A stretch of DNA of 64,000 bases from Parcubacteria group bacterium RIFCSPLOWO2_01_FULL_48_18 (GTDB taxonomy: Bacteria > Patescibacteriota > Minisyncoccia > UBA6257 > WO2-01-48-18), in the NCBI GenBank assembly GCA_001824435.1, contig MHXH01000017.1:335-64334 (forward strand). The letters run 5' to 3'. The position numbers and the translations under genes were made by a program. Below the pieces are notes generated by a model. It was not told the origin of the DNA and made no database searches. It saw only the letters and a list, made by a program, of their open reading frames with translations. This document shows, piece by piece, positions 2,746 to 64,000 of this stretch. Each line of letters begins with the position of its first letter. Positions within the stretch are counted from its first letter, which is position 1.

Positions 2746-3257
2746 CATTTTGTCATTGTTCCCGGATTTTTAACTTCAAAAATGTGAATGTATTTAAGCA
2801 TATTCAGATCATTTAGATTTTTAATGAATTCTTCAGGAAGCAGGCCGTTGCCGACCCAGACGCTTTTTTGTAATAGAGTAAAATCAAGGAGTTTTAATTC
2901 TGTGCGCAGCCAATTTCTGTACCGTTTATACTTTTCGGGAATGTCAAATACGATGATCGTACTACGGGTTTTGTCGTTTGTGGTTTTTTTGAACGAATGT
3001 GCCGGAAGCCTTTTCTGCCGCAGCTGAAGCAATTTTTCTTTTCCTTTTTGTAAAATTCTCCATGCTCCGCTAACTTCTTTTTTTACCAGTCCTTGCTTTT
3101 TCAGATTTGATAATGTCGTTGAAAACGTCGTTTCGGTCGACGGCCGCCCCATTCTTGTATATCGAGGCTTTGTCGGGTAGAGAACGGCGCGCCTAAGGGC
3201 GCCGTAGTTGCCCGGGGAGCTTTCCAGAAACTCTAATATTAATTCGGTAATAGCCAT
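2745..3257 (-). CDS. PaaX-like transcriptional regulator-like protein (wHTH plus PaaX C-terminal-type domain)
   Basis: TIIVFDIPEKYKRYRNWLRTELKLLDFTLLQKSVWVG resembles the PaaX pattern W..lvlysvPe..r..r..LRreL.w.GFg.lq.svW. Confidence 0.45.
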   Translation of the reverse strand: MAITELILEFLESSPGNYGALRRAVLYPTKPRYTRMGRPSTETTFSTTLSNLKKQGLVKKEVSGAWRILQKGKEKLLQLRQKRLPAHSFKKTTNDKTRSTIIVFDIPEKYKRYRNWLRTELKLLDFTLLQKSVWVGNGLLPEEFIKNLNDLNMLKYIHIFEVKNPGTMTK

Positions 3258-12194: not shown

Positions 12195-12369
12195 GTACCG
12201 CGTCTCCCATTGGAAGGAGTTTTCAAAGAAGAAACCATTTCTATATTCACACGGACAGCGCGGGAAAGTCAATATATTGTATAATGCAACCCCTTGTCAA
12301 TGGATAAATCTCATGCTACCATACTACCAGCTCATCACATCTTGCCGTTGTACGAAGGAGACAAAAACC

Positions 12370-13254: not shown

Positions 13255-13307
13255 AAAAATAAATCTCTGCGCGCGCGTCGCGGGGATTTTCGTTTTAGCG
13301 ACGGTCA

Positions 13308-15428
13308 TCATCTCTTCTTCCCTTCTATAATCAACTGCGCGATGCTCTGCGGCACCTCCTCGTAATGATCAAACTCCATTGTAAAACTGGCTCGCCCTTC
13401 GGTAAGAGACCTCAAGGTCGTCGCGTAACCGAACATTTCAGACAGCGGCACTTTCACGTTGATGACTTTTACGTCCGGCGGCCGATCATCCATGGATTCG
13501 ATTCTGCCGCGCTTTGAGCTCAAGTCTCCTGTCGCATCTCCCAAAAACTGCTGCGGGGTAATCACTTGCACCCTCATGATGGGCTCAAGCAATACCGGAT
13601 GCGCCATTCTGACCGCTTCTTGAAATGCCATTGAACCGGCGATTTTGAACGCAAACTCCGAAGAGTCGACTTCATGAAACGAACCGTCATAGAGCGCAAC
13701 CGCAACATCAACCACAGGATATCCGGCTACAATACCTTTATCGATCGCTTCTTTCACTCCTTTTTCGACTGCTGGAATATATTCTTGCGGAATAATGCCG
13801 CCTTTAATCTCGTCGATAAACTCAAAGCCGCTTCCGCGCTCTCTCGGTTCAACCCGGATTCGCACATGGCCGTACTGTCCCCGGCCGCCCGACTGCCGGA
13901 TATACTTCCCTTCTGACTCTGCGGTTTTAAGAATCGTTTCTTTGTACGCCACTTGCGGCCGCCCCACATTTGCTTCTACCTTAAATTCGCGCTTCATCCG
14001 ATCTACGATAATTTCAAGATGCAGCTCTCCCATGCCAGAAATAATCATCTCGCCGGTTTCTTGATCCGCGCCCATACGGAATGTCGGGTCCTCTTCGGAT
14101 AACCTTCGCAGGGCCAAACTCATTTTTTCCTGATCCGCCTTTGTTTTCGGTTCGATACGCACGGAGATAACCGGTTCGGGGAATATAATTTTTTCAAGAA
14201 TGATCGGATGCTCCGGATCGCAGAGCGTATCGCCCGTCGAAGTGTTTTTAAGGCCAACGATGGCGCCGATGTTTCCCGTTTGAATTTCGTCAAGCTCCTC
14301 CCTGTGATTCGCGTGCATGCGCAAGATGCGCCCCACCCGCTCTTGGCTGTTCTTTGACGAGTTGAAAATATACGTTCCTTTTTTCAAGACGCCCGCATAC
14401 ACCCGAAAATACGTAAGAGATCCGACAAAGGGATCGGTTGCGATTTTAAACGCCAAGGCGGAAAACGGTTCTCCGTCATCTGCCCTGCGCTCGAGTTCGG
14501 CATTGGTTTTTGGATCAAAGCCTTTCACCGGCGGCAAGTCCAACGGCGAAGGCAAATAATCAATGACGGCGTCAAGCGCGAGCTGAACTCCTTTATTCTT
14601 CAGGGCAGATCCGCACAGTACCGGTACCAGCTTATTTTCAAGCGTTGCCTTCCGCAGAATTCCTCGGAGCCGCTCCTCGCTTACTTCTTTCCCCTCAAAA
14701 TAATCCGACATCGCCGCATCGTCATGTTCCACAATCTTCTCAACCAATGACCGGCGGCACCCTTCTGCTGCCGATTTTAGGTTATCGGAAACCTCGGAAA
14801 CGACAATCGTATTTCCCTGATCGCCTTCGAATCGAATCGCCTTCATCCGCAGCAAATCAACAACGCCCTCGAATGAACTCTCGATGCCTATAGGAATTTG
14901 CACCAGAACCGCATTCGGGGTCAATCGCTCAAGGATAGAACGAAAGCTTTTTTCAAAGCTCGCGCCCATACGGTCAAGTTTATTGATAAAACAGACGCGC
15001 GGCACCTTGTAATCGTCCGCATAGTGCCAATTGGTTTCAGACTGCGGTTCAACTCCGGCAACACCGTCAAACACCACCACTGCTCCGTCAAGGACGCGAA
15101 GCGATCTTTTCACCTCAACCGTAAAATCGATGTGCCCCGGCGTATCAATAATATTGATGCGGTGTTCGTTTTCTGTTTTTGCCCCTTCGGGGTCTGAAAG
15201 ATAGCTCCTGCACCAAAAACACGTGGTGGCTGCCGCCGTAATCGTAATACCGCGCTCGCGTTCCTGCTCCATCCAATCCATGACCGTATCCCCCTCATGC
15301 ACCTCGCCGATCTTATGCGAAACGCCGGTATAAAAAAGTACCCGCTCAGTGACGGTTGTTTTACCCGCATCGATATGCGCGATGATTCCAATGTTCCGAG
15401 TCCTTTCTAAAGGATATTCCCTAGCCAT
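13308..15428 (-). CDS. fusA: elongation factor G
   Basis: [26 protein letters not shown]. Confidence 0.95.
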
Positions 15429-23935: not shown

Positions 23936-23999
23936 CTTATGATACCCAAAATTAAGGGTCTTGACAAATTCTGTGGGTCTGCTATAATTATGGTGTTAA

Positions 24000-24900
24000 T
24001 CAGCTCCTCGCAAACAAAACAGGGTTTTTGGCATGAATGTCTGGTAGGCTGGCCAAATGGAGAATCGATGCATTTTTATATAGTTATACACTAAGCATCG
24101 ACAATCCATTTCCCCTCACTTGGCCAGCCCATCAGGCATTCGTGCCTACAAGAAGGGGGCTATTATCCGATAGTGGTTCGCTTCGGCGAGCTTCAAAACC
24201 TTGTCCGAGTGCCCCCAATATTTCCCTGCGAAGCAGAGAATGCATTAGCTGATCCGGCGTTCCCCAGTTGACGCCAGCCGGTTTCAGATCCTCAAGGGCA
24301 TGAGGACTCTGCTTCTGCAGGGACCAGTACGTGGGCGGTAAGGCGCATCGGCGTAGCACAGATGTCCGAGACGCCAAAGACCAACGCGAGCCCGGCGACA
24401 GGACCAAATGGGAATCGCGTTGGTTCCGCCCAGTAGGTCATCGGATCCTCAAGGCATGGGGACCCGCAGAACCACAGCATGGGTGAGGGTCCAAGCCTGT
24501 AAAGTCCCTGCCCGCTGAACACCCGGGAAATTCCCGCGTCATCCAGCGCGCGTGTGGATTCCCTCACCCACCAGACCAGGGGCTCTTCGGCAACAATCCC
24601 GCCGGTGCGGCGGAAAACCAATGCAGCGGAATCGCTGCAGCTGTTGAGCCTCCATCGCAGCAACCACGTGGCAGCGCCGCCCGACCCTGTTCGCACACAG
24701 GGTGCGCAAGCGGATGGCTCAACGGCTAAGGACAATCTCCTTGCTGCCACGACGAAACAGGACCCGCGTGCTGTCAAGACTGAGCACACACACACGAGAA
24801 AGCTTGATCTCTCGGCTCGTACGTCGAGCACACGGGTCCTCCTCCAAGGGCGCGATGCCACACCAGCTCGCGCCCTTTTCACTTTTTAATGGGGCAATGC
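24000..24900 (+). ncRNA. GC-rich non-coding island; candidate structured RNA with weak rnpB-like motifs (identity unresolved)
   Basis: GC content is clearly above the flanks and only GC-biased Arg/Ala-rich spurious ORFs are present. Long-range complementary segments exist (cagtacgtgggcgg ... ccgcccagtagg). Plus-strand segments gtgggcggtaaggcgcatcggcg and cccggcgacaggaccaaatggg resemble RNase P RNA GGGUGCGGUAAGAGCGCACCGCG and CCCGGAGCAAGGCCAAAUAGG, in the right order. No convincing P4 was found and the region is about twice rnpB length. Confidence 0.3.
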
Positions 24901-34605: not shown

Positions 34606-35493
34606 TCACTTTACCGCATGTCCGCCAAACATATTTCTGAGCGCCGAGAGAACTTTTCCGGTATACGTCGGTTTATCATTCGATTGGACGCGAAATTGAA
34701 ATGCGCCTTCGATAATCGGCACGGGCACGCCCAGTTCATTCGCGATTTTAACGGTCCACTCTCCTTCACCGGTGTGGCCGACGGCCCCTGAAATAGATTC
34801 CAATTCAATGCCGTACTTTTCATAGGCACCTTCTAGCCAGCCAACGAGCCGCGATTCTATGACGCTCCGATGATTATACAAATCCGCAACTTTTTTCAAA
34901 TCCAATTGAAAATCGGATTTTTTCAACAGCCCAAATCCTTCGGCTAATGCCTGCATCATGCCATACTCGATGCCGTTGTGCGCCATTTTCACGAAATGAC
35001 CGGCTCCTGCTTTCCCCACATATGCATACGCGTTCTCCGCGGCAATATCTTTAAACAGGGATTCAAATTTTTTAAATGTTTCCTCCTTTCCGCCAACCAT
35101 CACGCACGCGCCGGTGCGCGCACCCGATGGCCCGCCACTCACTCCTACGTCCAAAAAATCAATCCCCTTCTTTTCCAATTCTCTGGCACGACGAACAGAA
35201 TCTTTATAAAACGAATTTCCCCCATCGATAATCGCGTCATTAGCTTGCAGGTGCGGGGACAATTCATTCAATACTTCGTCCACTACTGCATGCGGCACCA
35301 TGAGCCAGATGAGGCGGGGCGCGGTCAATTGAGCAGCCATGCCTACAAGCGAAAATGACGCGCTGGCGCCGAATCGAACCGCTTCCTGTGTCAATTCGGG
35401 AGACCGATCGTATACAGAAATTTCATAGCCGCGTCCACGCAACCGCTCCACCATATTCAATCCCATTTTCCCAAGTCCTATATATCCGAGTCG
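34606..35493 (-). CDS. gnd: 6-phosphogluconate dehydrogenase (decarboxylating), short NAD-binding form
   Basis: MRLGYIGLGKMGLNM, GDAIIDGGNS, GVSGG. ORF-track N-terminal extension is repeat-derived. Confidence 0.85.
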   Translation of the reverse strand, partial: RLGYIGLGKMGLNMVERLRGRGYEISVYDRSPELTQEAVRFGASASFSLVGMAAQLTAPRLIWLMVPHAVVDEVLNELSPHLQANDAIIDGGNSFYKDSVRRARELEKKGIDFLDVGVSGGPSGARTGACVMVGGKEETFKKFESLFKDIAAENAYAYVGKAGAGHFVKMAHNGIEYGMMQALAEGFGLLKKSDFQLDLKKVADLYNHRSVIESRLVGWLEGAYEKYGIELESISGAVGHTGEGEWTVKIANELGVPVPIIEGAFQFRVQSNDKPTYTGKVLSALRNMFGGHAVK

Positions 35494-35593
35494 CATGATT
35501 GGAATATAGAATTTAGAATCTAGAATTTGGAATACCAGCTTCCATGTTCTCAACTTCGGTAAATCCCAGATTCCAGATTCTAAATTCTAGATT
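35494..35593. repeat. Inverted heptamer arrays (tagaat x4 ... cagatt/ctagatt x5) between the zwf stop and the gnd start
   Basis: atagaat|ttagaat|ctagaat|ttggaat ... cccagat|tccagat|tctaaat|tctagat|tctaaac. Confidence 0.65.
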
Positions 35594-37030
35594 CTAAACA
35601 ATAGGTCCTGCGCTTCCCGGCTCATACACCAGAAGCGGCACTTCATTATTTTTCCACCCATCAAGGACGCTGTCAATGAATTTCCAACTTGCCATCACCT
35701 CTTCCGTGCTCGCAAATAACGTCTGATCTCCAGAGATACAATCAAGCAGAATTTTCTCGTATGCATCTACGAGTTCGCCGTTTTTCTCGATGCCAGAATA
35801 GTTGAGCGCCAGGGGGCGCTCTTCAAGTTCCATGGCGACGCCCGGGCGCTTTGTCCAAAACGATACCGCAACCTCCTGATTAGGCTGAAGCTGGAAATAC
35901 AACACATTCTGCACGTGGCGGTCCGGCGGACACAAACAAGGATCGACATGTTTGAACGTAACAAATGTCTCTACTACGGATCGATTGAGCCGCTTGCCGC
36001 TTTCAAGATTAAAAGGAACTCCTTCCCAACGAGGATTATCAATAAAAGCTGCCAAGCGAAAATATGTTTCTGTCTTCGAGTCTGGTGACACGCCACCCTC
36101 TTGGCGATAACCGATATATTGCGCCCTTCGCGTATCTCTTTTAAGCTGATCGCGCGAAACAGGTCGAAGCGCATACAGTGCGGCTGCCCGCGCTTTTCTG
36201 ATCTCGCTTGCGACAAATACGGCAGGCCGCTCCATGGCAATGAGAGCGAGCATTTGCAGCATATGATTTTGGCCCACGTCACGAAGCGTTCCGACACGAT
36301 CGTAAAATGCTCCTCTTTCTTCGACTCCGGCTTCTTCAAGCATTTTGATTTCAACCTTTTCGATGGCGCGCCCGTCCCACGAAGATTCAAAAATAGAATT
36401 TGAAAATCTCAATGCCAGGATATTTTGCACCGATTCCTTGGCCAAGTAATGATCGATGCGAAAAACTTGTTCCTCCTTGAACAATTTCCCGAGCATGGCG
36501 TCGAGCCGTTCTGCGGTTTTCAAATCGCTGCCGAACGGTTTTTCCACCAACACGCGAGTCCATCCGGTCTCATCGCTGCACGGCTTCGTTAAACCGGAAT
36601 TCGCCAGATGAGTAAAAATCTCCTCATAGAATTGCGGCGGGACGGCAAGATAAAATAATTTGTTTGAACACATTCCCCATGCTTCGTCTATCGACTCAAG
36701 GTTTCTCGCAAGCGCCGCATAACTGTTCGAATCGGAAAAATTACCTCGTTGATATCTCCACAACTCGGCAAAAGATTCAAAGTCCTTTTTTACGATCCCC
36801 GCCATCCCACCCGAAAAATTTACGGCCATGGAGCGAAAACCATTATCGCCCAGATCCTTCCGCGCAAAGCCGACAATCGCGCATTTATCGGGAAGCCAAC
36901 CGCGATTCCATAAATGAAACAATGCCGGAGTCAATTTTTTCTTCATGAGATCTCCGGTAGCGCCGAATATGGTAAGAACGGTTGGGGCGTTAAAATTTTT
37001 CTTATGGGGCATGTTCATATTATAATTCAT
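35594..37030 (-). CDS. zwf: glucose-6-phosphate 1-dehydrogenase
   Basis: IFGATGDL, RIDHYLAKE, EKPFG. Confidence 0.9.
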   Translation of the reverse strand: MNYNMNMPHKKNFNAPTVLTIFGATGDLMKKKLTPALFHLWNRGWLPDKCAIVGFARKDLGDNGFRSMAVNFSGGMAGIVKKDFESFAELWRYQRGNFSDSNSYAALARNLESIDEAWGMCSNKLFYLAVPPQFYEEIFTHLANSGLTKPCSDETGWTRVLVEKPFGSDLKTAERLDAMLGKLFKEEQVFRIDHYLAKESVQNILALRFSNSIFESSWDGRAIEKVEIKMLEEAGVEERGAFYDRVGTLRDVGQNHMLQMLALIAMERPAVFVASEIRKARAAALYALRPVSRDQLKRDTRRAQYIGYRQEGGVSPDSKTETYFRLAAFIDNPRWEGVPFNLESGKRLNRSVVETFVTFKHVDPCLCPPDRHVQNVLYFQLQPNQEVAVSFWTKRPGVAMELEERPLALNYSGIEKNGELVDAYEKILLDCISGDQTLFASTEEVMASWKFIDSVLDGWKNNEVPLLVYEPGSAGPIV

Positions 37031-37099: not shown

Positions 37100-37168
37100 C
37101 CGAATAATCTTCGTATGGATACACAGAGGATAGGCGGAGATGTGTAATACACAAACAGAAATTGAATA

Positions 37169-37200
37169 GAGCCCGGTGCCTATAGAAGCACACCGGGCTC
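37169..37200 (-). terminator. Hairpin terminator downstream of the island gene 37245..38498
   Basis: gagcccggtg-cctatagaag-caccgggctc, then a U-rich run on the minus strand. Confidence 0.5.
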
Positions 37201-37244
37201 ACTCGTTGGGAGAGGATCAACTGCCTCCTTCCCGAGAAAGACGT

Positions 37245-38498
37245 TTACTCCCCGTCCCTCTCACCTTCATCGGCGTCACCGGCAGCCTGACCGGCAGTCG
37301 ACGGCTGCTCTTCCTCGCGCTGGGAGCGCTTGGAAACGTCGTCTACCACCTTGTTCAGGAATGCCTGGGCGGCCTTCACCTTCAGATCCCGGCCGTCCTC
37401 CTCCACCTCATCGAGAAGAGCGAGCTTTTTGAAGCCGCCCTCCCCGCTGTGGGTGAACCGCCGGGGCTTTCTGTCCTTGCCGCAAAGGCCAAGGAAGAAA
37501 ACCGTTCCGTCGAGTGGATGACGTTCGGGCACGTACACCTTCAGCACGAACCCGCCGCCTTCAGAAGCCTCCTGCTCGAGGAAGACAGGGCCGGACACCG
37601 GCTGCCGACCCGGAACGTCCCACTCGGAAACGTAGCCCTCGGCAAGGCCAATGGCTCCGCTCCGGATGCCCTCGACCGTGACGCCCGCAGTCAGCTTCTT
37701 GCGAAGCTGCTCGATCGAACGGTAACGCTGATTGCGCGCTCGGGCCTTGAGTACCGTGAGCCCATTGAACTGCGCGTAAAACAGCGTAGCCAGCGCAGCC
37801 TTCTGCGGCTCGGCCTTGGCATCGAACCAACGCACGAGGAAGTAGTCGGTCCGGCCGCTCGCGGGGTTATACAACCCCCACGCGTACTTGCCGTCCCGGC
37901 CGTTCAGGCGCTTGTCGGCCTTGATGGCCTCGAGACGCCTGTCGTTGTGCTGTCTCGCCTCCTCCTTGCTGATCCGTTCGGCGAGATCAAGCTCGTCTGA
38001 GCCCCCGGCACCCAGATCGTAGATGCTCTGAGCGTCCCGGATCCCTGCCTCGAACGTAGCCTGGATATCGACCAGGAGCATGAAGGCAGGGGAAACCATC
38101 TTTTCCACGGCCTTCAACTGGCCAATGGCCTCATCGCGATCTCTCTCGGCCTCTGAGATTTCCTGCTGCAGCTTCCCGATTTCTACGGTGGTTTCCGCAG
38201 TTCTCAGGAGACGATTGAGCGTCTCGAGCTCTTGCACAGTCTGGTGGAGGTATTTCGTCCACCCAACCGTGCCCAGGAAAAGCTGGTACAGCTCATCGGC
38301 CGTCCCTGCGTTGTTCGGGTCGATGCCGAACGCAAGCGCGAGATTGCGCTTGTTTCCGGCAATCTCCTCGGTCTTCTCGCGAGCTGCAGAAGCCTGCTCC
38401 CGAACTTGCTCCGAGAGCTTGCGGATCGACTCCCTACGAGCCTTTCTGGCAGCTTCCAGCTGTTCGGGGCTCGCGTTTGAAGCAATCTGCGTACTCAT
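37245..38498 (-). CDS. hypothetical protein A (417 aa; N-terminal coiled coil, C-terminal globular domain), GC-rich island
   Basis: Start at MSTQIAS. GC content and codon usage differ from the flanks. No family recognised. Confidence 0.5.
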   Translation of the reverse strand: MSTQIASNASPEQLEAARKARRESIRKLSEQVREQASAAREKTEEIAGNKRNLALAFGIDPNNAGTADELYQLFLGTVGWTKYLHQTVQELETLNRLLRTAETTVEIGKLQQEISEAERDRDEAIGQLKAVEKMVSPAFMLLVDIQATFEAGIRDAQSIYDLGAGGSDELDLAERISKEEARQHNDRRLEAIKADKRLNGRDGKYAWGLYNPASGRTDYFLVRWFDAKAEPQKAALATLFYAQFNGLTVLKARARNQRYRSIEQLRKKLTAGVTVEGIRSGAIGLAEGYVSEWDVPGRQPVSGPVFLEQEASEGGGFVLKVYVPERHPLDGTVFFLGLCGKDRKPRRFTHSGEGGFKKLALLDEVEEDGRDLKVKAAQAFLNKVVDDVSKRSQREEEQPSTAGQAAGDADEGERDGE

Positions 38499-38785
38499 AC
38501 TCTTCCTCCTGGCTAAAGATGATGGATGTGAAACAGTGAACGCTCTCCCGACACAATTATGGATGGTTGGTACGAGAGAGTGTGCTGACTCGGAATCCGG
38601 AATATTCTTATCCTCGCTCAGACAAGAATATTCCTCCCATAATAAGGAAAGGAGGCAGTACACTCCCTCGTACACTTAATTCTCAATGAACACCTCTATT
38701 ATACACCCGAACCGCTAAAAAGTCAAGAGCCCCGCAGCCGAAGCCGGGGCTCTGAATATACTTAAAGATTGCCGTGAAAAAGAAC

Positions 38786-39763
38786 TTATGCGCGCGGGAG
38801 CACCTGGATCATGCGCTTAAAACTCATACGCACACCGAGGTTATCCTTGGCGCGAAGAATGGAATTCTGCACCTGATTGCGCAGTTTGTTGGTGAAGGCA
38901 TTCCATCGCCCATAGGCGTTGTTGATTACATAGCCCGGGGCGTGACGCTCCTCTCCGATGCGCTGGTCGATGGACTCAGCGATCGTGATGAACCGTCGAA
39001 GAATCTCGAACTCTTCATCGGTAGCGAGATCAGACCTAATCATCTCCGAGGCGAGAGCCTTACTCATCTCACTGACGACATCCACGATACCCGCGAGGGT
39101 TTCGGGAACATCGAGACCAAGCTCGCGCATCGTCGGAAGCCTCGGCATCTCCGCAACTTCACCGAGAACCACCGGCCAGATGGACCGGAACAGCATCGCC
39201 TCAACATACTCCTGTCCAACGTCCTTTTCGAACTGAGAAGAGTCCATGTCTGGAAGCGCGCCACGTCGCCCTTCGGGAAGATGATCATGAAGTTCCAGAG
39301 GAATCTCCTGGCGTTCGAACTCAAGACGAAGAAGAGTGAAATCTTCGGCGAGCCGATCGGACTCGACGTAATCCCCGCGCATCACGGCCTCAATGATCCC
39401 CTTGGAGAGATCGCTCGACGCGTTACGCGTTCCATGGCCTACGACACCGTACAGCCTCCTGCGGGCCTCAAGGATCTCGCTGACACCACGAAGCATCTCG
39501 TCGAAACGACGATACGTGCCGAAGTCTTTTTCAGGATCAGGAATCGGGAGCTTCACCGTGGGAGGGTTGTACCTCTTGGTGGACGAATGTCCTACCTGCA
39601 TGGAATGACCCCCGGGTCCGCTGTTGCGACCGGAAGGCGCCACAGGCTCAAAAGCAACCGGATCAGGCGTCGAAACAGGATCAGGACTCACGGGAGGACG
39701 ACAACTTTTCGAGCCGGAACGTCCCCACTTGCCAATGCCACGGCGATCAGAATCAGACATTGT
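38786..39763 (-). CDS. hypothetical protein B (326 aa; Pro-rich disordered N-terminus, helical C-terminus), GC-rich island
   Basis: Start at MSDSDRRG. Weak resemblance to Abi-like/HEPN regions (SIWPVVLGEV; LRNQVQNSILRAKDN), not convincing. Confidence 0.45.
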   Translation of the reverse strand, partial: TMSDSDRRGIGKWGRSGSKSCRPPVSPDPVSTPDPVAFEPVAPSGRNSGPGGHSMQVGHSSTKRYNPPTVKLPIPDPEKDFGTYRRFDEMLRGVSEILEARRRLYGVVGHGTRNASSDLSKGIIEAVMRGDYVESDRLAEDFTLLRLEFERQEIPLELHDHLPEGRRGALPDMDSSQFEKDVGQEYVEAMLFRSIWPVVLGEVAEMPRLPTMRELGLDVPETLAGIVDVVSEMSKALASEMIRSDLATDEEFEILRRFITIAESIDQRIGEERHAPGYVINNAYGRWNAFTNKLRNQVQNSILRAKDNLGVRMSFKRMIQVLPRA

Positions 39764-39941
39764 AATGCTCCTTCCTTGGGATTTCTCCCGTTGAGTTGTG
39801 GGGTGCTGGGAATAAGCTCGAAAGAGCTTATGGCTTGCCACTGCTTATTACAATGACAACCCTTAAACTCTCATTACGTGTCGAAGTTTTTAAAAAATCC
39901 GGGGGAGGGGCGAAGCAGGTGCTTAGCCCCTCCCGTATCAA

Positions 39942-40610
39942 CTACAGCTCGATCTGCTTGATCGTCTCCGGCGTATCTGCTGGCTCTTCATCGATACACA
40001 TCGTCACCTCCATCTTTTCCGTATCCCACACCGGGGTAAGGCGGAGATTGCGGCGCGTATCCATGAAAGATCCATGCTGTAGAGCGATCCAGAGCGGTTC
40101 GAATCCGTTCCATGGATGAGGCAGCGGGCTGCCGGGCAAGAAATCTGCAAGCTCAAGAAGGTGAGGATGGGGAGTAAACCACGATTTCTTAGGATGTTCT
40201 CGACCGAAACCAATCTTAACAAACTCTGACTCGCGCACCCCTGCCATCTCAAGGCCCCCTCTGACGATGCTACGCATGAATGTCCAAGTGAATCGACTCA
40301 ACACGAGATCGAATCTCACGCACTCTTCGGCAAGCCGCCGATATGAAAACGTCTGGTTCCCCATCGCTTCGGCCGTCGGTTCGAAATAGAAACGGATGGT
40401 CGGGGGCAACTTCTTAGACCCGCGCGTACGCTCGATCTCATAATGAACAAAGTCTTCGTTCCAACTGATGCCCCTGGTTTTAAGCGCATCATCTCCGAAC
40501 AGCGTCGCATTCAGCTGAACGCCGACGAACTCATTAAGCGGAAAGAACCGCTTGGCCCACTCGCCAATGTCTTTGGCAAGCGACGGCTCCACGTCAACGC
40601 ACGAACGCAT
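39942..40610 (-). CDS. hypothetical protein C (222 aa), GC-rich island
   Basis: Start at MRSCVDV; no family recognised. Confidence 0.45.
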   Translation of the reverse strand: MRSCVDVEPSLAKDIGEWAKRFFPLNEFVGVQLNATLFGDDALKTRGISWNEDFVHYEIERTRGSKKLPPTIRFYFEPTAEAMGNQTFSYRRLAEECVRFDLVLSRFTWTFMRSIVRGGLEMAGVRESEFVKIGFGREHPKKSWFTPHPHLLELADFLPGSPLPHPWNGFEPLWIALQHGSFMDTRRNLRLTPVWDTEKMEVTMCIDEEPADTPETIKQIEL

Positions 40611-40772
40611 ACGCTTCCTCTCTTTCTGGTCACGTGATACAGACGGCACAGCGCATAATCAACTACCGCTGCGCTGAATTGCTGCCTCAATTATAGCATG
40701 GGGGCCGTACAAAGTCAATGCCCCGTTTCCGCAAGACGGAAAGGGGGCATGAACGAAACACGTCCGAAGATC

Positions 40773-41633
40773 TTAAGCAGTGCGGCTCTGCGCCGAATCC
40801 CGTATGCAGCGTTCTTCTGCCGCAGCCAGATAACAAAGTGTCTGGGGATATCCGCCTTTGATGAGCCGATCTTCTTCTTCCCGCGCTACGAAGAAATCAA
40901 GCGCGCTTGCATGGATCGACACCACGCCAGACAAGCGGACATCACCCGATTCCGGATGTTCATCTTTGAATCTCTTCAGGTCTTCTGCGAGCGCCGGATG
41001 TTCTTTCATGAATATTTCCATATATTTTTCGAGTTCGCGCCATGCCTTCTGATTCTGTATCGAAACGATGTCAAAAATGGTTTTAGCCCGGATCCATCCT
41101 ACAAGCAAAATCTCAATGCCTTTGCCGGTAATCGTGCAATCGCCGATCGGCGGAGCACTCAGATAGAAAGTATGGCAGTGCACGCTGGATCCATCGCGGC
41201 TGTTTTTGTGAACCTCAAGGATCGTTTCGAATCTTCCGGGATCCACGATAAAACCGCCGTTGTCTCCGCCGGTTTCCTCCCACACCTCGGAAGCGCCGAC
41301 AATTCGACGCACAAGGTCTTCTCCGTCAAGCGCCATTTTACCGCGCCCTAAAGATTCTTGCCACGCACTAATAGCAGCGCGATACCGAACCAGTTGGCCA
41401 AAGACAATTTGGCCGCTATCTTCAAGCGCCGAAAAAAACTCTTCAACCGGAGCAGTTTCATCAACTCCGCCGGTCGGATTCTTCAGGTACAAACGGGGGG
41501 TTCCTCGTCTGTCCGCGCTGATCTTATCATTGTCCGCAAGCAGCAAGAACGCGTCGCAGAATTCGTCTTGAGGCACCAGCACGGAAGACGTATAGCTGGT
41601 GGTCTCGCGACCGCCGTGAATCCGTGTCACCAC
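40773..41633 (-). CDS. hypothetical protein D (286 aa), following the GC-rich island
   Basis: ORF track. Hairpin ccccgtttccg/cggaaaggggg lies downstream of its stop. Confidence 0.45.
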   Translation of the reverse strand: MVTRIHGGRETTSYTSSVLVPQDEFCDAFLLLADNDKISADRRGTPRLYLKNPTGGVDETAPVEEFFSALEDSGQIVFGQLVRYRAAISAWQESLGRGKMALDGEDLVRRIVGASEVWEETGGDNGGFIVDPGRFETILEVHKNSRDGSSVHCHTFYLSAPPIGDCTITGKGIEILLVGWIRAKTIFDIVSIQNQKAWRELEKYMEIFMKEHPALAEDLKRFKDEHPESGDVRLSGVVSIHASALDFFVAREEEDRLIKGGYPQTLCYLAAAEERCIRDSAQSRTA

Positions 41634-41870
41634 CGTACGCCTCCAGGTTGTATTGTCGAAGTGCGCCTAGAGCATTCCGCTCCCTCGTGTCCATTAATCT
41701 CTTTATCCTCACGAGTAATCCAATTATATCAAAGAAAAAGGGTGGTGTCAAACGAAGTATCAGTTACAAAACCAACCCAAATACTGGGGTTTCCGTATTG
41801 TAACGGAGCGAACAATTACCAAAAAGAAACAGAGCGGGTATATATCCCGCCCCATAAACTTGTCCGGTTA

Positions 41871-42638
41871 TTAACTTGCCTGAGGAGAATCGCTGCACTC
41901 GCACGTACATACCGCCAGGTGACACTTTTCACATTCATAAGGATACTGTCGCCACACTTCTTCGGCTAACTCTATTCTGCATCGGTTTGCCAACGCGAAC
42001 ATCCACGAAGCCACATCGGCCATCTCGTCTTCCAGTCCCTTCTTGTTATGATGCCGAGCCTCTTTGCTGATCTCTCCGGCTTCCTCGCCAAGATGGGCAG
42101 CAGTGTGCAGCACGAGAATTCGCCTATTCTGCAGAAAATACAGCCTCTTATGAAGCGCCTGGTATCCGGCGAGCGTTTTTGGATCCTTATCCCGCTCCAT
42201 TCTTAACCTGCGAAGCGTCTTTTCTCTGTCGGATATGACAGGATGCTCTATGGCACAAGCACAGTTTTCGCCGCGCAGACAGTACGGACAGACTCCCGGA
42301 TATTTAACCCACAATGCCTCCTGAAGATCAATGCCGAATCGATTTCCCACGGCGTTCCACCATGAATATGTTCTTGCGAGCTGCGAAGGCAGTTTCTCCA
42401 ATTCATCCTTGCGCGCAATTTCCATGATTTTGGCGATTTCTTCCAAAAGCCTCAAAATGAGGTCCGGATCGTCATAACGTTCATTAACCTTGCCATAGAT
42501 ATATGCATTCATTTCCTGAAATTCTCGAACGGTCTGCGGCTGAATAATCGTCTTATGCGCTGCCACCCGCGCCCCCTTACTATTGATATGGGATTCGTGA
42601 GCTACCTCAAGAATAAAGAGGCCCCGGAGGATTGTCAA
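41871..42638 (-). CDS. MazG-like nucleotide pyrophosphohydrolase with C-terminal Cys cluster
   Basis: Helical EExxE-type motifs (LGEEAGEISKEARHH; LEDEMADV). Cys motifs CPYCLRGENCAC and CEKCHLAVCTCEC. Confidence 0.5.
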   Translation of the reverse strand: MTILRGLFILEVAHESHINSKGARVAAHKTIIQPQTVREFQEMNAYIYGKVNERYDDPDLILRLLEEIAKIMEIARKDELEKLPSQLARTYSWWNAVGNRFGIDLQEALWVKYPGVCPYCLRGENCACAIEHPVISDREKTLRRLRMERDKDPKTLAGYQALHKRLYFLQNRRILVLHTAAHLGEEAGEISKEARHHNKKGLEDEMADVASWMFALANRCRIELAEEVWRQYPYECEKCHLAVCTCECSDSPQAS

Positions 42639-42789
42639 TGGTATGTATAAACGAGAGCCGCCATATCTCTTTTCCGGCGGCGCAAAAAAACGTCGGTCAA
42701 AAAGCCACGATCGTAAGGCCGTGGATGGATGCTAATTTATCTCGCGAAGCGAGAACCGGACAAAACCACACCCATAAGGGTACTGGGGT

Positions 42790-51997: not shown

Positions 51998-52363
51998 AAA
52001 AATAAAATAAAGACAAAAAAAACTAACGCGCGCAAAACATCTCGTCGCTATGTGGTACGATTATTCAATTAGTGGCAATATGAGAATCAGCCACCATAAG
52101 TAGTATTAAATTATCTTAAATTATAACTGATGAGGGGAAATTGTCAAGGCCCCCCAAAAAAGGGGTTATGTGAATAACTTTATTTCCTATAAACGGACAC
52201 GTGATGACCGAATCCCGATATGACCACCCGACCAACTCGGGACATTAAGAAGTTATATAATCCGCTATTCGCCCCCTGGCCGCTTGCCACCGACAACAAC
52301 ATCTGCTCGAATCCTCCGCCGGATGGCGAAACAAAAACAGAGGTAGCGACACCTCTGCGAATA

Positions 52364-58469: not shown

Positions 58470-58579
58470 CAACATCAAATCAATAATATATGCTCAACAA
58501 TGCAAAACAGCGGAATGTCCGCTGTTTTCGCTTCTAAAAACCTTTTTCATAATCCCGCACTAATTTTCTGCAATAGTAT

Positions 58580-58695
58580 CCCGGCGAATCCTACTTTCCC
58601 CGGCCACCGAAGCAGCGAGTATCATCAGAGTTTGACGCTTTCACTTCCGTGTTCGGAATGAGAACGGGTGGGTCACGCCAAACTAAATCACCGGG
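58580..58695 (-). rRNA. rrf: 5S ribosomal RNA
   Basis: Minus strand reads cccggtgatttagtttggcgtgacccacccgttctcattccgaacacggaagtgaaagcg...gattcgccggg. Conserved CCCACC..CCGAAC.CGGAAGU core and a terminal helix. Confidence 0.7.
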
Positions 58696-58812
58696 AAGCT
58701 GCTGCAGAAAATTTAGTGCGGGAGGGAGGGATGGGACACACATGACTTAACCGCTGGGAAGTCCAAAATTTTAAGCGGGGCGGGGTCGGAATAAAATGAG
58801 GTGATACCCGCC

Positions 58813-59112
58813 TCAAACTCCATATTCTGCCTGCCTCAAGCTTAAAAGCTCCTCCTCCGCTTCTCTTTTCTTCTTCGATAGTTGATCTAACAGATCGCTT
58901 TCCGCGTCAGTAGCTATTTGAACAAGCTTAAATTCCGTATCCGATATGTCTCCGAATAGGGATTCAAGATTTTGTTTATTCCCTGCAAGCCGCGACAGGT
59001 CGGCAGCAATCAGCTCACGTGCACGCGCAACGACTTGAGCCAATTCTTCGCTTACATATTCTTCATCCGGCAAATGGGCCGGGCGATGTGGTTCACGCAT
59101 TTCTCGACTCAT
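58813..59112 (-). CDS. hypothetical coiled-coil protein (99 aa) in the 23S-5S spacer
   Basis: ORF track only; unusual location. Confidence 0.3.
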   Translation of the reverse strand: MSREMREPHRPAHLPDEEYVSEELAQVVARARELIAADLSRLAGNKQNLESLFGDISDTEFKLVQIATDAESDLLDQLSKKKREAEEELLSLRQAEYGV

Positions 59113-59811
59113 ATATATTTCTTTCTATAGCCACACAAAGTGCAGAAATTCGAACAACAAAGTATTTCCATATATTTCTATAATATTTCCACATATTTCT
59201 GAAATACATTGAAATATGCTTCGCGAAACAAATAGAAATATCCTGTTTTGTATTTGCGCTTCCGTTGCTCCGCAACGGTTGGCTGACGCATTCTCCGACT
59301 GAAACGTCAGGGCTGCCCTTCAATAAATTCAGGGCTAAGTTTCTACGGGATTATTTATTCCGATTCCCCTAATTCACGCTCTCGATCATCCAGTCGAAGC
59401 AATTCATCGTCTATTTCATCTTTCCTTTCCCGGATATCTCTTAACCTTTGGTTATCTCCATCTATGCCAAGGTTTAGTTCAAAATCTTTCATCCGTTGTA
59501 ATTCATTCTCCAGCTCCTCCTTTTTTTACGAATCTCCAACGACCTTTCAGCAATTGTTTGTTTCTCTATTTTTTTGATTTTTCCATGTTAGTAAAACAAA
59601 TAACCTCCCTCGGTATTATATCCTATCAAACCCAGGTTATAAGTTCAACCTCGGGGTTGCTCTGATGAGCAATAGGGCTTCACCGAAGTGTCAATTGTCA
59701 ATTATTACCTCCGATGGGTGTGGGGATTAATTTTTTTGGATTATTAGTACTCCTCGGCTGAAATCCTTACGGATCTTACACCTGGAGCCTATCAGCCAGC
59801 GCTCCGCACTG

Positions 59812-59945
59812 GAATTTCTAATTCCTAATTTCTAATGACTAATCAAATCCAGATTTCGAAATCCCAATAACCAAAATATTAGAAATTGGCCATTTGGGCA
59901 TTGAAACATTGATTAGGAATTAGGTCAATTAGAAATTAGACATTT
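59812..59945. repeat. AT-rich heptamer-array element (aatttct/attagaa units) inserted in the 3'-terminal variable helix of 23S
   Basis: Shares attaggtcaattagaaatt with the copy at 63303-63418. rRNA homology resumes on both sides. Confidence 0.6.
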
Positions 59946-60013
59946 CCGGTGCGAAGCACTGGTTTTTACGTGGTAGTCTTCCACGATCCTCAAACGATAC
60001 CTTATCTTAGGGG

Positions 60014-60047
<34 letters not shown>

Positions 60048-60482
60048 CGTCCGAACATAGCTACCCGGCGTTCCACCTGGTGGCAGAGCCGGCAGACCAG
60101 AGGTTCGTTCATCCCGGTCCTCTCGTCACATAATCACATATCACTATGTGTGCAGACTATATCTTTACCCGTCCAGTCTTCGCCGGTTGGCGAATGGCAG
60201 GTTTGGGTATCGGCGTATTATAGATGTTCAAAAACATCTATCTCCCGGGCACATAAACTTATGTGCTTCGGTCAGTCGTTACGGGGTCAACCCTTCGATA
60301 AACTCAGGGTAACTTCCCACGGTATTAACTCTAGTTCGTTTATCCAAAAGTTTTGGACCGCAAAACTTTTACAAACTAAAGCCTTCACCGTTATTAGCCG
60401 AATTGTCATCTCGCATTACTGCGAGAAGTAGCAATTTTCGTTTACTAGGGACGACTCCCTTCAAGTATCAACGCCTGCGGCA

Positions 60483-60793
<311 letters not shown>

Positions 60794-60872
60794 TTTCACG
60801 TACCCTTTTAAATGGCGAACAGCCATACGCTTCCCACCTTCTCCAGCGGGGCGCTAGGGTGAGCCGACATCG

Positions 60873-61713
60873 TACATTGTTCCGTTATTACTAACAGTGT
60901 GGACTATGTCTTCATCCAATTATTTTTACTTTCAAGTAATGGCGCTGACGTATTAGTCAAATCTTTAAAAATTTGACTCTTCCGAATAAATCGGAAAGTC
61001 TCTACGGGGTTATAACTCAATTTTGTACTTCATTGATGGAATAACTGCATCAGCCAAAAGTTCTCTAAGCCTGGATAAAGATGATTTTTTAAAACGTAAT
61101 CTAAAATAGTTTTTGTCTCTATTTAGGCTAGTTTCTAAATTCATCTTTCTTAAAACTGCGATCAACCTTTTCTGATCACTGACATCGAACTGCTGAGAGT
61201 TCAGATACACATCAGAAGATCTACATCTGCTCCCATCGTCCATATACCAAACCGCTAGACTGACCACATCTAAATTGAGTTCATCCGGAATGATTTTTTT
61301 ACCATTCCGATAAAACATTCTATAAAGTTTAGATAGGCCTTCAAGCTGCCTGGTGTAGAAACGATAGGCAATTCTGTTTCCATTTCCCTTTCTTATTTTA
61401 GGAGCTGAGGCTGAAACATCTTTCAATAACCGATATTTCCAATCAACATATTCTTTTTGATTGTAAGAATGATTGATTTCTAGCAATGCGTTCTTGCTCC
61501 TCGGTAATATACGCAAGTAACCATCTCCCAAAATTGTTCCAATGATCAATGATTTTTGGAATTGAGTTAAACTTCCCACGGCATTGTCCATACGATAATC
61601 GTATCATATGGAGTCCGCCGTTATAAGTCAGATTTTTATTCTTCGAGTACCGAACACATCGTTTCAGTACCGAAAGGTATGACATTGCTGTCATAGCACC
61701 CCGATTTAAGTTA
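60873..61713 (-). mobile_element. Group I intron in 23S near E. coli position ~2500 (peptidyl-transferase loop), carrying a LAGLIDADG homing endonuclease gene
   Basis: Exons ...ggctcggcacct | intron | cgatgtcggctc... match GGCACCU|CGAUGUCGGCUC. Exact splice points are uncertain by 1-3 nt. Confidence 0.65.
61010..61591 (-). CDS. LAGLIDADG homing endonuclease (intron-encoded)
   Basis: Two LAGLIDADG motifs: LIIGTILGDGYL and LAVWYMDDGS. Confidence 0.9.
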   Translation of the reverse strand: MDNAVGSLTQFQKSLIIGTILGDGYLRILPRSKNALLEINHSYNQKEYVDWKYRLLKDVSASAPKIRKGNGNRIAYRFYTRQLEGLSKLYRMFYRNGKKIIPDELNLDVVSLAVWYMDDGSRCRSSDVYLNSQQFDVSDQKRLIAVLRKMNLETSLNRDKNYFRLRFKKSSLSRLRELLADAVIPSMKYKIEL

Positions 61714-61940
61714 AGGTGCCGAGCCTGGCCGTCGATAGGAACTCTCGGGCCAGACTAGCCTGTTATCCCTAGAGTAACTTTTATCCGGTGTCTCCGGCCT
61801 TCCTATGAAGAGCCGTCGGGTCACTAAGTTCTGCTTTCGCACCAGCGCGACTTGTAGGTCTTGCTGTTAAGCCGGCTTTTGCCTTTACGCGTCCAGCTCG
61901 ATTTCCATCCGAGCTAAGCCGACCTTAATAAACTCCTCCG

Positions 61941-62573
61941 TTACTTTTTAGGCAATGTGTTCCCTAATTTGTACTTCAGTGACGGTATGACGTACGAACC
62001 AATAAGTTCTGCGAATTTTTTGGCCGAATCGCTATAAATATAAATTCGCCATCTGTCGTATTGCTTATGTAGTCCAATCTCAACGTCAAACTTTTTCTGA
62101 AGCACGTCCTTTATTAACTCAAGATCTTTCTTGCCATATCCGAGTGCATGAATAATGTAGGTTTTATGCTTTTCGGATTTGTAAGATCCATCATCCATAA
62201 ACCATATCGCGAGTGCCAATGGATCGAGCAACTTCGAAATCAATTTCGGAATTCGTTTCTTCCCGCCCTCATAAAACTGCTGGGCGTAAAAACGAAACGC
62301 CCCAAGAGAATATGTAGAAAACCAGTAGCTGTCTTGTGCTCTCTTTCGCATTTTAACTTGCGGAGTTGTACGAACAAGATTCTTAAATTCCTCATACAAC
62401 CAATTTACATATTCTTTTTGTTTCAAGGAATGTTCTACTTTAAGACGGTATGTTCGACTGCGATTGCTTGTTTCCAAATGACCATCGCCTAAAAGCAATC
62501 CAACAAGAATAGATCTCTGTTTTTTATTGAGTTTCAATTTCTTTTTGAAACTTTCAATCTCGTTTGATCTCAT
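61941..62573 (-). CDS. LAGLIDADG homing endonuclease (intron-encoded); ORF runs ~13 nt into the 3' exon
   Basis: ILVGLLLGDGHL and LAIWFMDDGS. The last codons and the stop lie in exon sequence cctaaaaagtaa. Confidence 0.9.
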   Translation of the reverse strand: MRSNEIESFKKKLKLNKKQRSILVGLLLGDGHLETSNRSRTYRLKVEHSLKQKEYVNWLYEEFKNLVRTTPQVKMRKRAQDSYWFSTYSLGAFRFYAQQFYEGGKKRIPKLISKLLDPLALAIWFMDDGSYKSEKHKTYIIHALGYGKKDLELIKDVLQKKFDVEIGLHKQYDRWRIYIYSDSAKKFAELIGSYVIPSLKYKLGNTLPKK

Positions 62574-62888
62574 TTCATTAGGTTCGCCGCGCGTATCGCA
62601 CGGCCTGCATATCGCTATGCAGTTCGGACCATATCATACAGCTACCGAAATAGCCGTTCTGGCTTGTGGTCTCTGAGGTGTTCCGGGCACAGAACATGCG
62701 CCACGGTTCCCTGCTGATTGTCCGCCGCTCCGATTTTAATCGGAAACCGCTCCAAGATTTTCACCTTCTCGACTAGAAGGTACTTGAAGACACCACGGAT
62801 GTTCCAGCATATACACCAGATTTTCACCGCCGCTTGGCGGTGTCCCCCTGTAGTTCCACGGAGGTGGAACTACGTTTAAGGAAAACGC
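61954..62888 (-). mobile_element. Group I intron in 23S near E. coli position ~2260 (P-loop side of domain V) with 3'-located homing endonuclease ORF
   Basis: Exons ggggcgttttcct | intron | cctaaaaagtaacggaggag match GGGGCGGUCUCCU|CCUAAAGAGUAACGGAGGAG. 5' exon ends in U and the intron ends in G. About 315 nt of ribozyme-like sequence precedes the ORF. Confidence 0.7.
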
Positions 62889-63302
62889 CCCATTTAAACT
62901 GCCCACCAGGCACTGTCCAAACTGGGTTTATGGAAAACCAATTCCCAATTCGTTAGAGCTTACAGTTTTAAAGACGGGTGTTTCATTGGCGGCTCCAGTC
63001 CGCCCGAAAGCAGGCCTTCAAAGCCTCCCCGCTACGCTACGCATTAAAACCATAAGACCAATACCAAGCTACAGTAAAGCTTCTAGGGTCTTTTCGTCTT
63101 GCCGCAGGTACCCCGCGTCTTCACGGGGATCGCATTTTCACCGAGCTCCTCGTTGAGACAGTTGCCCAGTCGTTACGCCTTTCGTGCGCTCCGGAACTTA
63201 CCCGGAAAGGAATTGCGCTACCTTAGAACGATTATAGTTATCGCTGACATTGACGAGGGCTTACAACAGTGAGCCGTACACACCTCACTAAAGTTCGGTG
63301 CT

Positions 63303-63418
63303 CAAATTTCTAAATCCTAACTTCTAATTTCTAAATAAATCCCAGTAACCGAATTCCGAAATTGGGTATTGGAAATTTATTAGAAATTAGGTCAATTAGA
63401 AATTGGTCATTCAAGTAT
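63303..63418. repeat. AT-rich heptamer-array element inserted in 23S helix 68 region
   Basis: The insert splits helix strands cactaaggcgag / ctttagtgagg. Homologous to 59812-59945. Confidence 0.6.
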
Positions 63419-64000
63419 CTCGCCTTAGTGAGATGCATACGACCCCCATCGTTTAACCTTCTCGCATCGGTCAGGCGTCACCCCCTATACATCCTCTTAC
63501 GAGTTAGCAGGGAGCTGTGTTTTTGATAAACAGTCGCCAGGCAAACTTTCGCTGCGTCCCTCGCACCTTGCGGTGCTCGGGAAGGCCTTATCGCTAACTT
63601 ACGGCCGCTTTTTTGCCGAGTTCCTTAACGAGGACTCACTCGTTCTCCTTGGGCTACTCGCCCCGCCCACCAGTGTCGGATTGCGGTACGGAACCAATAC
63701 TATTAACTCTAGAAGTTTTTCTTGGATCGCTCTTCAGCCGGATTGCCCTGGTAAAAACCAAAACTTTCGTCTGCTTTCGGAATTTGCCATAAAAGACAGT
63801 TGAACGGATTTGCCTGTCCAACATTCCTTCAAGCAAACAGCGTCAAACCATTAAGACGCCCGGCCTTATTTCAACCGTCGCTCCATCGAAATAGTATCGG
63901 TGGGACGGAATATTAACCGTCTGTCCATCACCTTCGGCTTTCGCCATCGGCTTAGGACCGCCTCACCCGTGGTTGATTGCCATTGCCACGGAAACCTTGG

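Follow-up and report, generated by a model that had tools for sequence, protein, structure and literature searches.

Organization of the dnaJ–zwf locus

The window, i.e., the whole 64-kb stretch of DNA analysed in this work (contig MHXH01000017.1), belongs to a metagenome-assembled genome of a Parcubacteria population (candidate phyla radiation, CPR) from Rifle groundwater. Between dnaJ and zwf it carries a block of five genes, designated A, B, C, D, and the MazG-like gene, which a preliminary description made from the sequence alone had presented as a GC-rich island and a candidate acquired defence or accessory module. The gene order is rpoC, membrane protein gene, dnaJ, MazG-like gene, D, C, B, A, zwf, and gnd; six minus-strand genes in a row had been counted earlier, and five lie between zwf and dnaJ. 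A hypothetical protein of Parcubacteria group bacterium RIFCSPLOWO2_01_FULL_48_18 matches the product of gene A with 100% identity. Hydrophobic segments are absent from all five proteins. The oxidative pentose-phosphate genes zwf and gnd (window positions 34606–37030) flank the block. The five genes are listed below with their GC content and their GC content at third codon positions (GC3).

37245–38498, minus strand: gene A, GC 0.615, GC3 0.75 (first, second, and third codon positions 0.67, 0.42, and 0.75)
38786–39760, minus strand: gene B, GC 0.56, GC3 0.60
39942–40610, minus strand: gene C, GC 0.54, GC3 0.62
40773–41633, minus strand: gene D, GC 0.526, GC3 0.54
41871–42566, minus strand: MazG-like gene, GC 0.496, GC3 0.53

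The dnaJ–zwf arrangement was assembled independently in at least nine contigs (NCBI, ENA, JGI, Logan) that are 99.87–100% identical to the window, and because at least nine independent assemblies carry it, the block is not an assembly chimera. Every contig bearing A comes from a single clonal population; as all copies represent this one population, their polymorphism is uninformative on selection. Relatives were compared by means of 160 dnaJ loci from genome and metagenome collections, in which the nearest DnaJ among the matches listed was 55–57% identical and only the membrane protein–dnaJ pair was kept. None of A–D or the MazG-like gene occurred within 10 kb of dnaJ in these loci. No counterpart of zwf or gnd occurred within that distance either, and the side of dnaJ with zwf–gnd is therefore lineage-specific. 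A lineage-specific, accessory-looking character of the block genes is supported; for the most part they form a run of genes confined to this lineage, as is common in CPR genomes.

Gene B encodes a translin/TRAX-type protein

Gene B encodes 324 amino acids (aa). Residues 1 to about 70 are Pro/Ser/Gly-rich, modelled with low confidence, and absent from the homologues, and residues ~75–324 form an all-helical translin/TRAX (C3PO-type) domain with E184, E187, D227, and E231; the disordered Pro-rich N-terminus and helical C-terminus that had been described earlier are thus both recovered. Translation may alternatively start at M54. In NCBIfam, B matched NF011157 (PRK14562) with an E value of 1.1e-8. 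This family carries the name "haloacid dehalogenase superfamily protein", which is misleading: because a 106-aa fragment of NeC3PO matches it at 4.7e-49, and also passes Pfam Translin, NF011157 is the archaeal translin/TRAX family. The score of B was only 35 bits against a cutoff of 238, and the match indicates remote homology, not curated membership. Among PDB sequences, only NEQ131, i.e., NeC3PO (5jr9), was matched at E ≤ 0.01, and the other listed match had an E value of 0.82.

The cation-binding residues E82, E85, D117, and E121 of NeC3PO were validated by mutagenesis, and their equivalents in human TRAX are E123, E126, D193, and E197 in the numbering of the same study (PMC5100593). In our alignment these NeC3PO residues (chain residues 116, 119, 151, and 155) fall on E184, E187, D227, and E231 of B. 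Three homologues of B were found, with 35–38% identity, and in the resulting four-member family E184, E187, and E231 are invariant and position 227 is D, D, E, and D. The family also has two further invariant motifs: PDxxxDFGxY lies close to the N-terminus, and RHxPGYVINNxYxRW precedes the last helix. The AlphaFold2 (AF2) model of B built on the four-sequence alignment had a predicted local distance difference test score (pLDDT) of ~70–90 in the helical core, and the fold search with it returned the seven-helix translin/TRAX fold and not HEPN. The weak Abi/HEPN traces suspected previously in B were not sustained, as neither Pfam nor PADLOC gave an Abi or HEPN match; an R/K-x5-H string seen by eye at residues 267–273 stands in a translin-fold context.

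Like the archaeal C3PO proteins (NeC3PO, NEQ131, 5jr9; AfC3PO, 3zc0), B has the ExxE and DxxxE metal-binding carboxylates in register, a basic residue after the second motif (R124 in NeC3PO, K234 in B), and is encoded as a single translin-superfamily gene. Unlike them, it falls under the Pfam Translin and NCBIfam cutoffs, has the two additional invariant motifs of its family and an extension of ~70 disordered residues, is known here from its sequence and a predicted model, and belongs to a CPR bacterium. Among bacterial members of the C3PO family, a 2016 study of NeC3PO (PMC5100593) named only Chloroflexi. B therefore differs in host as well, and in our reading it is a divergent translin/TRAX-superfamily protein with a predicted intact catalytic constellation; its assignment to a new, divergent bacterial branch of C3PO/TRAX nucleases, with predicted activity, stands on these sequence and model comparisons. 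B-like genes are rare, with four clusters among 5.8 billion sequences in a word-indexed search, none in the 160 dnaJ loci of relatives, and no match to B in the phage, plasmid, and viral collections. Should B prove active as a C3PO-type nuclease, the range of the translin/TRAX family would reach into CPR bacteria; our literature search found no link between translin and Patescibacteria.

The compositional anomaly is essentially gene A

The window as a whole has a GC content of 0.492. Among 1250-bp segments of all 64 kb, GC is highest in those that begin at 37.1–37.5 kb, where it reaches 0.616, compared with 0.488 ± 0.028 outside the region (z = 4.55), and the tetranucleotide distance peaks at the same place (0.347 vs. 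0.180 ± 0.038). The compositional outlier noticed at this position was thus confirmed by calculation. Its extent was not: the "island" of four genes with deviating GC content and codon usage is essentially one gene, because the outlier in GC3 and relative synonymous codon usage (RSCU) is confined to A. Against the reference of 47 long open reading frames (ORFs) of the window, with a GC3 of 0.537 ± 0.063, A is raised by 3.4 standard deviations, B and C by 1 to 1.4, and D and the MazG-like gene by 0. The RSCU correlation with host genes is 0.11–0.31 for A, 0.38–0.44 for B, 0.57–0.61 for C, and 0.62 for D, so that the codon usage of C and D is host-like. D and the MazG-like gene are compositionally native to the host, and B and C are only mildly raised. 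The B-like genes of two Yanofskybacteria-type loci (see below) also lie ~5 GC points above their own loci, and the small GC excess of B looks like a family trait. A second GC-rich ORF of 196 aa occurs at 24292–24882 on the minus strand, with a GC content of 0.62 and the same value at second codon positions, from which it is either a low-complexity protein or read in the wrong frame; it has no Pfam match.

Predicted transcription units and gene A

Sigma-70-like consensus matches, scored out of 12, are termed promoter-like sites in the following. They were found together with hairpins between the genes of the block.

37169–37200, minus strand: terminator-like hairpin after A, GAGCCCGGTG...CACCGGGCTC with T-rich tail, read in the sequence
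38499–38692, minus strand: 5' leader of A, ~190 nt, with a long nested stem, from sequence and folding
38698–38726, minus strand: promoter-like site of A, TTGACT-17-TATAAT, 11/12, from the consensus scan
38728–38751, minus strand: hairpin after B, AGCCCCG...CGGGGCT, abutting the –35 box of the promoter-like site of A
39903–39934, minus strand: intrinsic-terminator-like hairpin after C, an inverted repeat with arms GGGAGGGGC.../...GCCCCTCCC
40690–40718, minus strand: promoter-like site of C, TTGACT-17-TATAAT with upstream TG, 11/12
40720–40748, minus strand: hairpin after D, abutting the –35 box of C, junction GGGGC-A-TTGACTTT
41723–41751, minus strand: promoter-like site of D, TTGACA-17-TATAAT with TG, 12/12
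41829–41855, minus strand: terminator-like hairpin and T run after the MazG-like gene
42610–42638, minus strand: promoter-like site of the MazG-like gene, TTGACA-17-TATTCT

Promoter-like sites that agree with the consensus at 10–12 of 12 positions precede A, C, D, and the MazG-like gene. Each gene has a hairpin behind it, and the hairpins after dnaJ, the MazG-like gene, C, and A are terminator-like and carry T runs. The hairpin after C has 15-nt arms, of which 14 positions are complementary, and a T6 run 5 nt downstream. The sites for A, C, and D each lie just downstream of the hairpin ending the previous gene. The whole window contains eight sites with at least 11/12 matches, three of them in the block and one ahead of rpoB; outside the block, perfect 12/12 sites (TTGACA-16-TATAAT) occur only at 52120–52147, upstream of rpoB, and at 23961–23988 on the plus strand. 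Because A, C, D, and the MazG-like gene have their own promoter-like sites and all five genes are separated by hairpins, the block is not an operon, and we conclude that they are transcribed as separate predicted units. Regarding the two terminators thought to bound the block, the hairpin at 37169–37200 is present and followed by a T-rich tail, and the element at 40690–40720 is instead the TTGACT-17-TATAAT match of C, to which the hairpin at 40720–40748 adjoins.

A was confirmed as a 417-aa protein with a good Shine-Dalgarno sequence (AGGAGG), which sits 8 nt ahead of its ATG. The protein is soluble, with an acidic tail and an N-terminal part of ~195 aa predicted to be helical in a low-confidence model (single-sequence AF2, pLDDT 38.8, unusable for a fold search). 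The leader folds with a minimum free energy of –65 kcal/mol (z = –3.17) and matches no Rfam family; in the whole block, Rfam gave only a sub-threshold snoRNA match, inside A. The coding-type GC at the three codon positions, the Shine-Dalgarno sequence, the promoter-like site, and the terminator-like hairpin argue that A is a real gene, and it is probably well expressed. A 14-nt inverted repeat with 13 of 14 positions complementary brackets A (37220–37233 and 38646–38659); one arm, ACTGCCTCCTTTCC, is anti-Shine-Dalgarno-like and belongs to the leader, and its partner sits just past the stop codon. The repeat was dismissed as a signal, because by our estimate this 7.5-kb region should contain about four such pairs by chance.

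That the GC-rich segment could be an artefact, i.e., a chimeric join or non-coding GC-rich DNA with a chance ORF, is hardly credible and was contradicted by the data. Such a reading would agree with the long ORFs that high-GC DNA gives on both strands here, and with the lack of homologues of A. However, the same junctions were obtained from different samples by different pipelines in the independent assemblies at ≥99.87% identity, the codon-position values are a coding signature in the called frame, and the ORF of A is framed by a consensus promoter-like site, AGGAGG, ATG, and a terminator-like hairpin.

Searches for homologues of A returned only A itself in the word-indexed search, and no credible match in an exhaustive HMMER scan of 1.84 billion cluster representatives or in Pfam, PADLOC, PHROGs, NCBIfam, PDB sequences, phage records, plasmids, and viral contigs. 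An apparent match to P0007 (E 2e-6) was rejected, since it is one 96-aa match of 23% identity counted eight times; P0007 is a near-perfect CarboxypepD_reg repeat protein, and the match overlaps residues of A that the low-confidence model predicts to be helical. Its composition makes acquisition from an unsampled source of higher GC content the most likely origin of A.

The MazG-like gene, C, and D

The MazG-like gene begins with GTG and encodes 231 aa; a 255-aa ORF can also be read, and the shorter form is favoured because the promoter-like site falls inside the longer one. The protein passes Pfam MazG PF03819 (23.5 bits, cutoff 22), and its C-terminal half matches SSO3215 (1vmg) with an E value of 1.7e-5, in an alignment that shows EEAGE and EDEMADV. 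It is an internal duplication, the halves being 31% identical (E 6e-13); a Cys cluster closes each of them, CxxCx6CxC in one and CxxCx4CxCxC in the other. The earlier reading as a MazG-like pyrophosphohydrolase with a Cys cluster therefore holds, with two such clusters. The C-terminal half keeps the EExGE and ExxADV motifs of MazG-type enzymes (SSO3215, 1vmg; dCTPase/RS21-C6 group), whereas the internal duplication, the first half without the second acidic motif, and the Cys cluster at the end of each half set the protein apart from them. It is probably a nucleoside triphosphate (NTP) pyrophosphohydrolase that hydrolyses non-canonical or surplus NTPs. It belongs to a cluster of six sequences and had no match in the phage, plasmid, and viral collections.

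Gene C encodes a soluble protein of 222 aa with host-like codon usage, and gene D a soluble orphan of 286 aa with native composition. Neither gave a credible match in Pfam, PHROGs, NCBIfam, PDB, or the viral, phage, and plasmid collections. The word-indexed homologue search, made with D and C concatenated, returned only D itself and missed C's own cluster, represented by a 120-aa fragment, and is thus uninformative on C. No paralogy was found among A–D. The statement that A–D lack a nameable family consequently remains valid for A, C, and D, and B is the one that can be placed, as translin/TRAX.

GC-rich genes downstream of B-like genes

Two Yanofskybacteria-type populations, represented by loci L090 and L093, carry a B-like gene, which comes after ftsH in both. 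The two loci are collinear from L19 through the B-like gene and again from an S1-domain gene onward, and the 3.2–3.3 kb directly after the B-like gene are non-homologous between them. None of the neighbours of the B-like genes resembles A, C, or D. In each locus there is a GC-rich gene downstream.

L093 (locus GC 0.43), 12369–13814: GC-rich gene of 481 aa, GC 0.626, GC3 0.83
L090 (locus GC 0.43), 11044–12111: GC-rich gene of 355 aa, GC 0.592, GC3 0.65

Thus a GC-rich orphan lies on the same strand downstream of a B-like gene in three loci, i.e., the window, L093, and L090, and no Pfam family above noise was found for the latter two orphans. The order in L093 is B-like gene, NUDIX gene, 205-aa gene, and 481-aa gene; in L090 the 355-aa gene comes after the B-like gene. 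When a GC3 outlier is defined as an ORF that exceeds the median GC3 of its locus by 0.18, there are 11 among 1344 ORFs in 117 loci, and three of these are A and the 481-aa and 355-aa genes. Six of the other eight were read and look ordinary (rpoB, rpoC, an oxidoreductase, a phosphoribosyltransferase, a membrane protein, and a zinc-finger protein), and none of these six stands beside a B-like gene. In the locus of one relative (L040, 2828–9617), rpoB and rpoC have a GC3 of 0.77–0.83 where the median of the locus is 0.57; either GC3 outliers also arise among housekeeping genes in these metagenome-assembled genomes, or this contig is compositionally mixed. That three of three outlier orphans stand downstream of B-like genes by chance is unlikely at a background of ~0.6% per ORF, and the sample is tiny. 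As the order B-then-A repeats at the other long B-like loci, we hypothesize with moderate confidence that the position downstream of B-like genes is a variable slot.

Other features common to the three loci were compared. A common donor of A and the two other orphans was rejected, as their RSCU correlations of 0.69–0.76 are no higher than those with unrelated high-GC genes. The other two orphans also have promoter matches, TTGACA-17-TATAAT in L093 and TTGACT-17-TAGAAT in L090, with leaders of 125–150 nt. A structured leader as a common feature was discarded, since A and the L090 orphan have z values of –3.2 and –4.6 but the L093 orphan only –1.0. An NTP pyrophosphohydrolase is found near the B-like gene in all three loci: the MazG-like protein in the window, a NUDIX protein encoded directly after the B-like gene in L093, and in L090 an S21–NUDIX fusion two genes off on the opposite strand. 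At 3079–4710 of L090, ~5 kb upstream of the B-like gene, there is a large serine recombinase (Resolvase, Recombinase, and Zn_ribbon_recom), adjacent to SNase and UDG-like genes; the matching stretch of L093 has different small genes, and the recombinase region is a second variable region beside the L19–RluA–FtsH block.

The junction after B in the window and that after the B-like gene in L090 have the 17-mer CGGGGCTCTTGACTTTT in common. As a proof of common ancestry it is weakened, because it also occurs in three viral contigs, about the number expected by chance from a rough estimate of the collection size. One viral-collection contig (GC 0.62, unrelated) has CGGGGCTCTTGACTTTT in the same hairpin-plus-promoter layout, without protein similarity. 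A terminator stem joined to a –35 box may plausibly have arisen by convergence, and the hairpin–promoter junction common to the window and L090 is suggestive only. A wider reading, that the B-like genes of Parcubacteria mark an undescribed conflict or gene-capture locus of two or three parts in which a conserved C3PO-type nuclease and an NTP pyrophosphohydrolase (MazG or NUDIX) accompany a slot for high-GC orphans that are repeatedly acquired or diversify rapidly, is very unlikely in our judgement; the orphans would then be expressed from the hairpin-plus-consensus-promoter junction, and A would be the current occupant of the slot.

The setting of the B-like genes also bears on a housekeeping role in the nucleotide salvage or RNA turnover of a reduced CPR cell, in which B would break down nucleic acid that is imported or spent and the MazG-like protein would keep the nucleotide pool clean, A, C, and D being unrelated lineage-specific fillers and the GC-rich neighbours a coincidence. 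This joint reading is consistent with the position of the B-like genes between ftsH and the S1-domain gene, their divergence like that of the flanking genes, and the native composition of the MazG-like gene and D. Moreover, about half of the genes on the source contig have no Pfam match, so runs of unassigned genes are normal, and a ComEC competence gene lies within the window. We nevertheless regard it as unlikely. The rarity of B-like genes, in the sequence collections as in the loci of relatives, would be odd for such a role, and the coincidence itself is improbable when three of three outlier orphans are set against eight in ~1340 background ORFs.

Tests for an integrated island and a defence system

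The 64-kb window contains no tRNA gene and no integrase or recombinase among its called genes, and only chance-level repeats were found as flanking direct or att-type repeats at the block. With atypical composition seen only in A, the block does not look like an island of site-specific integration. The notion of an accessory module was upheld in part: the lineage-specific genes and the foreign codon usage of A speak for it, the GC3-rich orphans and nearby NUDIX hydrolases at B-like genes elsewhere partly restore the idea of linkage, and the missing integrase, tRNA gene, and direct repeats, as well as the native D and MazG-like gene, against it. Searches with DefenseFinder or PADLOC had been proposed at the outset; PADLOC was run, and PADLOC-DB v2 gave no match at E ≤ 1 for any of the five proteins of the block, nor anything for the B-like genes or GC-rich orphans at the other loci. 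Only two neighbours were matched, the S21–NUDIX protein of L090 to PDC-S07 (E 1.3e-9), which we read as a generic NUDIX-domain match, and a 288-aa L090 gene to CSD_V (E 0.0087, weak). The proposal of an anti-phage defence module was therefore not supported, and there was no sign of a single co-transcribed module.

The locus resembles variable hotspots and defence islands in that atypical, non-homologous cargo is replaced at the same position between L090 and L093, and in that the window locus has the same order of anchor and cargo. It differs from them by the absence of integrase, tRNA, and att-like repeats at the window locus, by the absence of known defence genes, and in that the anchor, B, has changed its genomic surroundings in this organism. 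An undescribed defence or conflict module, in which B would be the effector, the pyrophosphohydrolase would deplete or clean nucleotides, and A, as fast-changing GC-rich gene, would serve as partner in sensing, specificity, or counter-defence, is in our view quite unlikely. It would account for the B-like gene, GC3-rich orphan, and NTP pyrophosphohydrolase lying within three genes of one another in all three long loci, and for cargo that differs between otherwise collinear genomes, as is typical of hotspots; the large serine recombinase near the L090 locus would suit it, as would the relaxed junction GGGGC-N(0-3)-TTGACTTT, whose only occurrences in ~1.9 Mb lie ahead of A, C, and the L090 cargo gene. 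Against such a module are, in addition to the PADLOC results, the predicted separate transcription units and the divergence of the Yanofskybacteria B-like genes in step with their housekeeping neighbours (65% vs. 67–74% nucleotide identity). Furthermore, the L090 NUDIX domain is fused to ribosomal protein S21 on the opposite strand, nothing that corresponds to C or D was found at the other B-like loci, no viral relatives were found, and the comparison comprises three loci. D and the MazG-like gene are of native composition, and the B-like genes by ftsH stand in a housekeeping setting without A, C, or D.

Proposed interpretation of the block

Taking the results together, we consider it probable that the block is a patchwork of five soluble-protein genes, with a TRAX-like B and a foreign A in a variable slot. 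In this patchwork, the MazG-like protein would act as an internally duplicated, all-alpha NTP pyrophosphohydrolase of native composition, clearing non-canonical or surplus NTPs, and D and C would be further genes with host-like codon usage. By analogy with archaeal C3PO, B most likely assembles into a hollow homo-oligomer and may cut single-stranded RNA or DNA by two-metal catalysis via E184, E187, D227, and E231. A would have been taken up from an unsampled source with a higher GC content, and the place it occupies, downstream of B-like genes, would be a variable slot that may repeatedly have held foreign high-GC genes.

Several observations weigh against this interpretation. A and the two other GC-rich orphans have no mutual similarity, and the codon usage common to them is generic for any high-GC gene. 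The recurrence comprises three populations, and in two of these the chromosomal site is shared. On a fourth B-like contig, 1.5 kb long, the gene downstream is instead a convergent one for an M23 peptidase, and the upstream side has only 84 nt of the end of an ORF with a GC content of 0.68. The source organism for A was not found, and for B itself the consensus scan gave no promoter match of 9/12 or better. Regarding the assignment of B, the mean pLDDT of its model is 62.6 from only four sequences, Pfam Translin (PF01997) matched none of the four family members at E ≤ 10, and B lies far below the NCBIfam curated cutoffs (NF011156–61).

We know of no physiological role for prokaryotic C3PO. A recurrent partner of the B-like genes, be it the variable GC-rich gene or the nucleotide pyrophosphohydrolase, would be the first contextual clue to it.

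The rRNA region of the window

At the far end of the window, a 5S rRNA gene lies at 58578–58696, and a 23S rRNA match at 62697–64000 has model positions 1345–2925 compressed into 1.3 kb. Between them are two AT-rich ORFs (GC 0.36–0.37) for LAGLIDADG homing endonucleases, at 61010–61591 and 61941–62573, with 33% mutual identity. From the sequence, this looks like a 23S rRNA gene interrupted by an intron (window 58578–64000), and intron-interrupted 23S rRNA genes are a feature described for CPR bacteria.

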